From Candidatus Micrarchaeota archaeon (GTDB lineage Archaea > Micrarchaeota > Micrarchaeia > Anstonellales > Bilamarchaeaceae), in the NCBI GenBank assembly GCA_041694885.1, contig JBGFRX010000016.1, positions 86 to 64,085 of the forward strand: a stretch of DNA of 64,000 nucleotides, in the 5' to 3' direction. Shown here one piece after another: positions 41,075 to 42,190 of the stretch. Made by a program: the position numbers and the translations under genes. Under the pieces are notes generated by a model. It had not been told where the DNA came from. It saw only the letters and a program-made list of their open reading frames with translations, and searched no databases. Within the stretch, counting starts at the first letter, position 1. Every line of letters begins with the position of its first letter.

Positions 41075-42190
41075 ATGGGAAACGCACATTTGAGCGAAGA
41101 TAATGGGTTTGCTATGCAACAGAGGCGATGGAAGCCTCGTGAAAGATATCTGGAAAAGGTTTTTAACAGAAAAAAAGCAGGCGACTGGGCTGCAGTGAAG
41201 GAACTTTTTGACAGGTACCAGTACATTGCGCCAAAAACAGTGGATAAACGCATAGAACTAAGAGAATGCAAAGTGCGGAAAATAGAGGATGCTCTTCATA
41301 GCAACAATGGCGACCATGGTAATGTGGATGAAGCAACGCAGACCAAATTGCTGCTCGAATATGCTAAGAAAAAAGCGTTTGTTGCACGCCATCTGCAATG
41401 CAGGGATTACATGGTTGAGGTTGTACGCGACAAACTTATGGAAAAATTGATGGATGCGAATCCAAAAAATCCGTCATATATATCTTCACATGCGTACAAG
41501 TGGGCAGAAACCGAAACAAAGCGTTTGATGAAGCTTCTGGAAAAGGAACTGCGCATTGGGAGCGTACTTTCGGCCCGGCAAATGGAAACGCCGATACGTA
41601 CGCCATTCGATTGCGTCTTGGAAACCGAATGCTCGAAAATGATAAAGTTCATGCTGAAATGGCTAACGCCAAAGGAAGACAGAGTAATACGCATGAGATT
41701 TGGGATTGACTATCCGTACAAAACACTTGGGGAAATAGCAGGGCATTTGTCAGTGACGCCGGAACGAGTAAGGCAGATCGAAACAATGGCCCTGATAAAA
41801 TTGAGGCGCTCTCCCCGTTCAAAGACATTGGGGCACTTTGTCGCTCCGCAGCCAGGCCGCAGCTGGCTCACAGAAGATGCGCCGGAAAACGAGGAGCAAA
41901 AAAAGGCCTGCAAAAAAGTGGATGAAATCATCCTGAAAACCTGCAGAAACGATGCGAAGGTAGTGCGGTGCAGGATGATCGAAGGGCTGCACTGGAGCGA
42001 GATAGAGAAGAAAACGGGCATTAGCGGCTACTGTGCCAGGCAAATGGTTCACGCGCATCTCGGAACAATTGAAAAATTACTTGTCGGACTTGCTGCGCAG
42101 CTTGGCACAAGCGGTTCAGTGGCTGCTGCATTGGTAAAAGGGGCGCGCATTGACGAGTACGTAAGGCGCATTGCAGAAGCGGCGAGGTAA
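41075..42190 (+). CDS. Regulator with two sigma-70 region-4-like HTH domains (first copy canonical r4.2), atypical composition
   Basis: [49 protein letters not shown] matches sigma-70 region 4; second HTH ...[41 protein letters not shown] is ECF/LuxR-like; possible degenerate region-2-like [12 protein letters not shown]; codon usage AAA/GAA-biased unlike neighbours. Confidence 0.55.
   Translation: [371 protein letters not shown]

Follow-up and report, generated by a model that had tools for sequence, protein, structure and literature searches.

We describe a gene in a 64,000-nucleotide stretch of a Candidatus Micrarchaeota genome (contig JBGFRX010000016.1 of assembly GCA_041694885.1; the whole stretch is hereafter called the window) that encodes, at 41075-42190 on the forward strand, a 371-amino-acid protein carrying a bacterial RpoD-type sigma-70 region 4. 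Transcription by way of sigma factors is a bacterial hallmark; in archaea, initiation relies on TBP and TFB. We see about an even chance that this is a horizontally acquired, degenerate sigma-family gene that now serves, if it is used at all, as a DNA-binding helix-turn-helix (HTH) regulator of transcription. What is novel here is the orphan protein, its layout (an N-terminus that is orphan or holds a candidate sigma region 2 remnant, an RpoD-type region 4 and a putative second sigma-4-like HTH) and the clean evidence for its insertion.

Region 4 and family membership

Residues 171-256 (41585-41842, forward strand) comprise the end of sigma region 3.2, regions 4.1 and 4.2 and the RpoD C-terminal tail, and are a genuine bacterial sigma-70 region 4 of the RpoD type. 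The Pfam profile Sigma70_r4 (PF04545) gave a significant hit on aa 194-244 (47.4 bits, gathering cutoff 24.1), the sole Pfam match of the protein at E <= 10; together with the match of aa 171-256 to the RpoD C-terminus, it bears out the region 4.2 that an earlier reading of this DNA (the original prediction) had placed at ~196-245. The NCBIfam RpoD model scored 70-73 bits on aa 171-256, which are collinear with the final 87 residues of RpoD, RHPSRS-type tail included. RpoD chains in the PDB match the same residues (best 9gdo_F, E = 7.6e-12), as does our own group 1 sigma-4 profile, built from 54 non-redundant RpoDs, with 80 bits. Identity to residues 525-611 of Escherichia coli sigma70 is 41% over 86 positions.

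In bacteria the region 4 HTH is the reader of the -35 element. Kept in the micrarchaeal protein are E585, R586, R588 and Q589 of the recognition helix (E. coli numbering), with the core ERxRQIE retained, and F563, I565, L598 and L607 of the hydrophobic core. The roles of the sigma70 residues named in this report (-35 contact, recognition helix, hydrophobic core) are those given in the sigma70 literature.

The reading frame, its coordinates exactly as predicted, runs for 371 uninterrupted codons in DNA of ~48% GC, with neither stop nor frameshift over 1.1 kb; translation from Met14 (41114), an alternative start, yields the 358-aa product of the NCBI record. Four parts can be distinguished along the forward strand. 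An orphan, helical and basic N-terminal region (aa 1-90, 41075-41344) is AT-shifted, with a GC content at third codon positions (GC3) of 0.42. It is followed by a candidate decayed region 2 remnant that is not established (aa 91-161, 41345-41557), by the RpoD-type stretch and, at aa ~268-337 (41876-42085), by a putative second sigma-4 HTH that resembles those of extracytoplasmic function (ECF) sigma factors in weak profile matches. Region 3 of sigma-70 is absent from the 371-aa protein.

Among 5.8 billion proteins searched, the sole full-length match was the gene itself. The other listed matches cover region 4 only and are of RpoD length, nearly all with the full bacterial sigma domain set; those bearing source names are all bacterial, and the highest identity among them is 53%, over 21% of the query. 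The donor cannot be named, because region 4 is too conserved across bacteria. GTDB genomes, IMG/VR and JGI metagenomes yielded no relatives in scans that reach close relatives only, and INPHARED phages yielded RpoD region 4 matches only.

The whole protein scored 48.2 bits against TIGR02937, the generic sigma-70 family model, and thereby passed the curated cutoff of 42.9. Separate stretches scored 31.9 bits (aa 171-256), 38.8 bits (aa 84-256, collinear over profile positions 12-163) and 14.5 bits (C-terminal domain alone), so that it takes two sigma-4-like stretches plus a faint sigma-2 signal to exceed the cutoff. Of what a functional sigma factor should have, region 4 was found and region 2 was not. 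Since region 2 fails and the generic model is passed only on summed parts, the protein should not be named a sigma factor, and the name that TIGR02937 supports, "sigma-70 family RNA polymerase sigma factor," is misleading here.

More specific models fell far short of their cutoffs. The group 1 (RpoD) equivalog NF004208 scored 70 bits (cutoff 555), at profile positions 546-629 of 631 only; the ECF models NF058625 and NF009172 scored 27.3 bits (cutoff 130) and 25.2 bits (cutoff 222). Archaea do have sigma-4/LuxR-like HTH regulators, such as Tfx and Bat/HTH_10; the GerE, HTH_10/Bat and Tfx profiles gave no Pfam match at E <= 10. The likeness to RinA/ArpU that had been suggested was not borne out, these families being absent from the matches in Pfam (E <= 10) and PHROGs (E <= 1) and from the best 25 of 38 NCBIfam hits. 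Kinship with MzaA, the sigma factor of the MZA defense system, was considered and rejected: the NCBIfam model scored 66 bits (cutoff 800) on region 4 only, and there are no defense neighbors.

Region 2 and the N-terminal half

A faint trace of sigma region 2 may be present at the expected place, with its functional motifs gone. Our own group 1 sigma-2 profile aligned to aa 92-150 with 3.2 bits, a score reached by 7 of 1000 shuffled sequences, and Pfam Sigma70_r2 had no match in the protein at E <= 10. At the aligned position the core-binding motif of region 2.2 (DLIQEGNIGL) is not conserved, and just one of the aromatic melting residues of region 2.3 is kept. The original prediction had pointed to a possible degenerate stretch resembling region 2.4; the faint collinear region 2 signal agrees with it in part, but the aligned motif corresponds to region 2.3, not 2.4, and the core-binding and melting residues are unconserved.

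The N-terminal 175 aa had no homolog beyond the gene itself in an exhaustive search of 1.84 billion representative proteins; the same search gave two multi-stretch matches in very long proteins, which we took as low-complexity. Pfam and NCBIfam had no matches in the N-terminal region. PHROG profiles matched the N-terminal half weakly (phrog_14211 "anti-repressor," E = 4e-4; a family of no known function, E = 4e-3). AlphaFold2 (AF2) modeling of the full protein, made without an alignment for lack of homologs, reached a predicted local distance difference test (pLDDT) score of 41.7, from which no structural conclusion was drawn.

The C-terminal domain

The second HTH, at aa ~268-337, has weak support as an ECF-like sigma-4 domain. 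When the C-terminal domain was searched in isolation, NF058625 (E = 0.0032) and TIGR02937 (E = 0.02) matched it, the sigma-4 portions of both profiles being those aligned. The AF2 model of this domain (mean pLDDT 54.9) has helices at 273-289, 296-305, 307-314 and 318-342, compatible with a four-helix sigma-4. These weak matches and the helix pattern favor the predicted "double sigma-4" protein with a second ECF/LuxR-like HTH; speaking against it, Pfam had no match in the isolated domain, and our group 1 sigma-4 profile gave no significant score there (equaled by 69 of 1000 shuffles). Foldseek comparison of the C-terminal model with the PDB returned noise only (E > 3). A homolog search with the C-terminal 115 aa found nothing, yet it also missed the protein itself, and this negative is not relied on. 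Internal duplication as the source of the two HTHs was ruled against, since BLASTP found no similarity between them and the group 1 sigma-4 profile was not significant on the second.

Four cysteines, C279, C290, C299 and C320, are grouped in the putative second HTH (aa 279-320, 41909-42034, forward strand) with non-classical spacing; metal or redox sensing by this cluster is conceivable. Residues 309-337 (41999-42085, forward strand) align ungapped, at ~45% identity, with the C-terminal helix region of the RNA polymerase (RNAP) subunit Rpb10/RpoN. The resemblance falls below significance (PDB E = 0.07; Pfam RNA_pol_N E = 0.11) and the zinc-binding cysteines of Rpb10/RpoN are mostly missing, on which grounds we rejected kinship in favor of probable chance; the window has no rpoN for comparison.

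Insertion relative to sister genomes

The locus was compared with those of five sister genomes (L003, L007, L008, L009, and L010), whose DtdA proteins are 58-70% identical to the window copy. The gene order common to all five is T2SSE, T2SSF, PAP2, a 184-190-aa membrane protein, a gap, DtdA and ThiF, allowing that two shorter sister contigs end short of the far genes in this series. Between the membrane protein gene and dtdA the window has 1,415 bp, the sisters only 232-512 bp, which a tRNA gene fills. A tblastn search of the five sister loci detected no remnant of the ORF in any of them. The flank at the tRNA promoter is common to the window and L003 up to ~41015; on the other side the end of DtdA is level with its orthologs, and the dtdA stop lies 2 nt from that of the ORF. 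From the five gap loci without the ORF and the shared flanks, we conclude that the gene together with its own upstream region is a ~1.2-kb insertion specific to this lineage (41016-42192, boundaries approximate), and the five-sister comparison thus dates the gene as a single-gene insertion.

Absence from the syntenic site in 5/5 sisters, together with listed sigma-4 relatives that are bacterial wherever they carry a source name, upholds the horizontal acquisition that had been predicted, as does the want of any full-length homolog; it is the opposite of the ubiquitous, syntenic archaeal family that would have marked an ordinary regulator. A second NCBI record (L001, a 3,672-bp contig of GCA_041695005.1) has the same arrangement and includes both junctions, which rules out misassembly. 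It differs from the window by 1 mismatch in 3,672 bp, a synonymous single-nucleotide polymorphism (SNP) at 42109 (A/C, Thr345).

An integrated element was considered and rejected: no att-like repeats were found flanking the insertion, and no integrase was found among the window genes scanned. An 11-nt repeat shared by the 5′ end of the tRNA gene and the interior of the ORF is probably due to chance. In one sister lineage an intein-containing RtcB gene follows dtdA (L005 7841-10804, L006 3129-6092), a sign of repeated rearrangement downstream of dtdA.

Host, composition and neighbors

The gene lies among genes for exosome subunits, SMC, GGGP synthase (PcrB), a UbiA prenyltransferase, an archaeal pilus ATPase with its membrane partner, archaeal-type DtdA, an EMC3/TMCO1-like insertase and SecY, in keeping with the archaeal chromosome of the original prediction. 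The named relatives of DtdA are from Micrarchaeota, Micrarchaeia, Anstonellales and "ainarchaeum," which makes the host a DPANN archaeon of that group.

A compositionally foreign gene had also been proposed, and here the numbers disagree. Its GC3 is 0.508 vs. a window mean of 0.595 (SD 0.060; z = -1.46), the 8th lowest of 63, and the log-likelihood of its synonymous codons under the window model has z = -0.68. The housekeeping neighbors DtdA (GC3 0.476) and ThiF (0.507) share its preference for AAA and GAA codons, and only the N-terminal 90 codons are clearly AT-shifted. Host-like codon usage (z = -0.68) fits long residence rather than contamination. Along the gene GC3 rises from 0.42 in the first 90 codons up to 0.58 in the C-terminal domain, a gradient that hints at mosaic origin.

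The upstream neighbor on the same strand (40199-40777) encodes a 192-aa membrane protein, syntenic and conserved in all sister genomes and without a Pfam family; its gene overlaps the PAP2 gene by 29 nt. The sigma-like gene had been placed between a dolichol-kinase-like gene and dtdA. The dtdA flank is correct, and the dolichol-kinase label is unconfirmed, the 192-aa protein having no Pfam match.

Elsewhere in the window, a 396-aa protein with a GGDEF diguanylate cyclase domain (29879-31069, reverse strand; Pfam 75.5 bits) would add a second regulatory gene of bacterial type to the contig; this signaling domain is rare in archaea. Tandem paralogs with DUF1246 and DUF1297 domains (26686-27819 and 28005-29048, forward strand) are presumably of the archaeal PurP (FAICAR synthetase) type.

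Upstream tRNA gene and promoter region

Divergent from the sigma-like gene is a tRNA-Met(CAT) gene with two introns (40787-40971, reverse strand). Its exons are 40971-40957, 40925-40903 and 40822-40787; the introns are 40956-40926 (31 nt, in the D-loop) and 40902-40823 (80 nt, at position 37/38). Neither ARAGORN nor Rfam recognized this gene in the raw upstream sequence, while the manually spliced 74-nt sequence was called by ARAGORN as tRNA-Met(cat) with a perfect cloverleaf. Across the five sister genomes the exons are nearly invariant and the introns variable. In minimum free energy folds the anticodon loop is paired with a conserved block of the intron, and intron 1 forms a hairpin. The "300-bp AT-rich spacer" with three palindromes of the original prediction is therefore mostly this tRNA gene: its T-arm and an intron hairpin account for two of the palindromes, and the third is within chance. 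Intron-rich tRNA genes of DPANN archaea evidently escape standard tRNA finders and are then taken for spacers.

Both introns are present in the window and at two of the sister loci, L007 (7790-8082) and L010 (2044-2326). In the other three, L003 (7811-8090), L008 (2800-3031) and L009 (2124-2635), the orthologous tRNA-Met stands in inverted orientation with respect to dtdA and has no D-loop intron. The L009 pre-tRNA is 387 nt long, with an interruption of ~300 nt in the anticodon arm that apparently includes a duplicated part of the 3′ exon. The tRNA-Met locus thus looks recombination-prone among these sister Micrarchaeota. The sole tRNA that Rfam reported in the window lies at 56415-56513 (reverse strand), and ARAGORN reported none in the window; from its length of 99 nt this tRNA, too, probably bears an intron.

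Motif matches suggest a putative promoter of the sigma-like gene itself at 41016-41074 (forward strand). TATA-like TTTTAAATA at 41027-41035 and TATATAA at 41045-41051, 24-48 nt upstream of the ATG, agree with the TATA box predicted ~25 nt from the start. An AGGT resembling a Shine-Dalgarno sequence lies at 41066-41069, within an inverted repeat (ATAACCTACA/TGTAGGTAAT) at 41048-41070. The 7-bp perfect stem of this repeat was equaled by 14% of dinucleotide shuffles and by 7% of equal-sized window tiles; being no rarer than chance, it was rejected as an autoregulatory operator.

Origin and possible use

Reuse of an acquired sigma-family gene as a sequence-specific DNA-binding regulator is the reading that we favor. 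An archaeal cell would have no bacterial core RNAP, and the domain for core binding and -10 melting is decayed; from this we infer that the protein cannot act as a promoter-specificity subunit. In real sigma factors no part is better conserved than region 2. That sigma-4 is here well kept (~80 bits) and sigma-2 almost erased points to selection on the DNA-binding module only, or to capture of a 3′ rpoD fragment, and makes simple uniform decay unlikely. One or both of the sigma-4-type HTHs might recognize a short sequence, conceivably akin to the -35 element, close to archaeal promoters with TATA box and TFB recognition element (BRE). The bound protein could then block or assist recruitment of TBP/TFB, in the manner of most bacterial-type HTH regulators of archaea, and the helical N-terminal half might serve in oligomerization or partner binding. 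Several points weigh against such a regulator. Positions of -35 contact are altered (R584P, E574G, K593M), by which DNA binding or its specificity may have been changed or lost; the lone upstream inverted repeat, a potential target site, is within chance; the second HTH is weakly supported; structure prediction is poor for want of homologs (pLDDT 42 and 55); and the gene is represented by just two near-identical copies, one synonymous SNP apart.

The same changes at key -35-contact residues would suit a nonfunctional or transient relic, a bacterial or virus-borne sigma gene or fragment that came to lie beside a tRNA gene and is decaying as an ORF without a cellular role. The gene is known from one species only and forms no family, region 2 is erased and region 3 absent, and the rise of GC3 from 0.42 to 0.58 suggests a patchwork. 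Against decay stand the 1.1-kb frame, open without stop or frameshift, the TATA-like elements at suitable distance, the host-like codon usage and, above all, a region 4 far better kept than region 2, a contrast that uniform neutral decay would not give; we rate a relic as unlikely, if still a serious possibility. Somewhat more doubtful, in our view, is that the gene came from a virus or mobile element of DPANN archaea as a sigma-derived regulator of element genes or host transcription, delivered beside the tRNA gene. DPANN viruses and a prophage have been reported with divergent genes annotated as rpoS (PMC12647753), the insertion abuts a tRNA gene whose inversion in three sister lineages marks a recombination-prone spot, the N-terminal half has weak PHROG matches (E = 4e-4, 4e-3) and the N-terminal codons are AT-shifted. 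Yet a single gene was inserted, unaccompanied by integrase, att repeats or other element genes, and on the 5′ side of the tRNA gene rather than the usual 3′ integration side; IMG/VR, INPHARED and JGI metagenomes show RpoD sigma-4 only, in scans two of which reach close relatives only.

A working sigma-like initiation factor, in which sigma-4 would read the promoter while another part docks archaeal RNAP/TFB or the bacterial RNAP of a partner cell, we consider very improbable. The TIGR02937 score of the whole protein (48.2 vs. 42.9 bits), the conservation of the hydrophobic positions that serve as beta-flap contacts in sigma70 and the sub-threshold likeness of the C-terminal HTH to Rpb10/RpoN (E 0.07-0.11) speak for it. 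That score, however, needs two sigma-4-like stretches and a faint sigma-2 (aa 84-256 alone reach 38.8 bits), neither the core-binding motif of region 2.2 nor the melting residues of region 2.3 persist, the gene sits in an archaeal chromosome, and the Rpb10 likeness is not significant and lacks the zinc ligands. The bacterial flap-tip helix and the sigma-2 site on the beta-prime coiled coil are not known to have an equivalent partner role in archaea, and the known hosts of Micrarchaeota are archaea (Thermoplasmatales), not bacteria. Equally hard to credit is an exaptation of sigma region 4 for a new kind of promoter recruitment, in which the RpoD-derived HTH would read a -35-like element and the orphan N-terminal domain, or the C-terminal one with its sub-threshold Rpb10/RpoN-like helix, would dock archaeal RNAP/TFB; if true, it would be a sigma-like, activator-independent route of initiation in a DPANN archaeon. 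Least probable of all is an artefact of assembly or binning that misjoined a bacterial fragment into an archaeal contig. The domain is bacterial in type and the genome metagenome-assembled, but both junctions recur in the second NCBI record (GCA_041695005.1) with 1 mismatch in 3,672 bp, the flanks are syntenic archaeal genes with the dtdA stop 2 nt from the ORF stop, codon usage is host-like, and the protein is not a bacterial RpoD but an orphan, 41-53% identical to RpoDs over 86 aa only.

Relation to known systems

Genes of the sigma-70 family have been met in DPANN archaea before, so the gene is not the previously undescribed archaeal use of the sigma-4 fold that it had been thought it might be. 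DPANN genomes, mostly of Woesearchaeota, hold genes classified as sigma-70 (fam00359) alongside those for TBP, TFB and TFE; anti-sigma factors were not found, misbinning was excluded and function was left open (Castelle et al. 2021, PMC8204110). From DPANN viruses of acid mine drainage, a 2025 report describes two genes that carry an rpoS annotation (PMC12647753), and InterPro has Sigma70_r4 annotations on some archaeal LuxR-type proteins (PMC5413776).

The micrarchaeal protein is a compact one for asking how transcription parts of one domain of life get co-opted in another. What survives here in an archaeal cell is the HTH that reads the -35 element, the domain for polymerase binding and melting being lost, a pattern that speaks for the reuse of such genes as simple regulators that bind DNA.

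The closest likeness in sequence is to bacterial RpoD: aa 171-256 are unrearranged relative to the RpoD end, with identities of 41% to the E. coli protein and of up to 53% to RpoDs of 475 aa, whose named sources are in Nitrospirota/Thermodesulfovibrionales. Unlike RpoD, the protein lacks regions 1.1, 1.2 and 3, has at best an unrecognizable remnant of region 2, carries an extra C-terminal domain after region 4 and scores ~70 bits with equivalog models whose cutoffs exceed 350; its micrarchaeote host, moreover, presumably has no bacterial RNAP. In size and order (a faint sigma-2-like stretch, a short linker, sigma-4 and no sigma-3) it recalls an ECF (group 4) sigma factor, and the only sigma profile matches of its C-terminal domain are to ECF-type sigma-4. 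Its conserved sigma-4 is of the RpoD type, however, the ECF models score 27 vs. 130 bits, and sigma-2 is undetectable alone.

RinA/ArpU, activators of late phage genes, and MzaA are likewise small or unusual sigma-related proteins outside the housekeeping role, and MzaA models match the sigma-4 part (66 bits in NCBIfam, 45 bits in PADLOC); RinA/ArpU were absent from the Pfam and PHROG matches and the best 25 of 38 NCBIfam hits, and the MzaA match reaches 66 bits of 800 on region 4 only. With fam00359 and the "rpoS" genes of DPANN viruses the gene shares its kind, a bacterial sigma-family gene in DPANN archaea or their viruses with no anti-sigma partner. Its unusual layout sets it apart from them as they are described, and, since a search of 5.8 billion proteins gave no full-length relative, it is no close member of any such family. 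Tfx, Bat/HTH_10 and LuxR solos (PMC5413776 for the LuxR type) differ in that the HTH here is rpoD-derived, C-terminal tail included, and matches none of GerE, HTH_10 or Tfx in Pfam at E <= 10; they are nonetheless archaeal DNA-binding proteins with the same small HTH fold, and theirs is the functional class to which we assign the protein.

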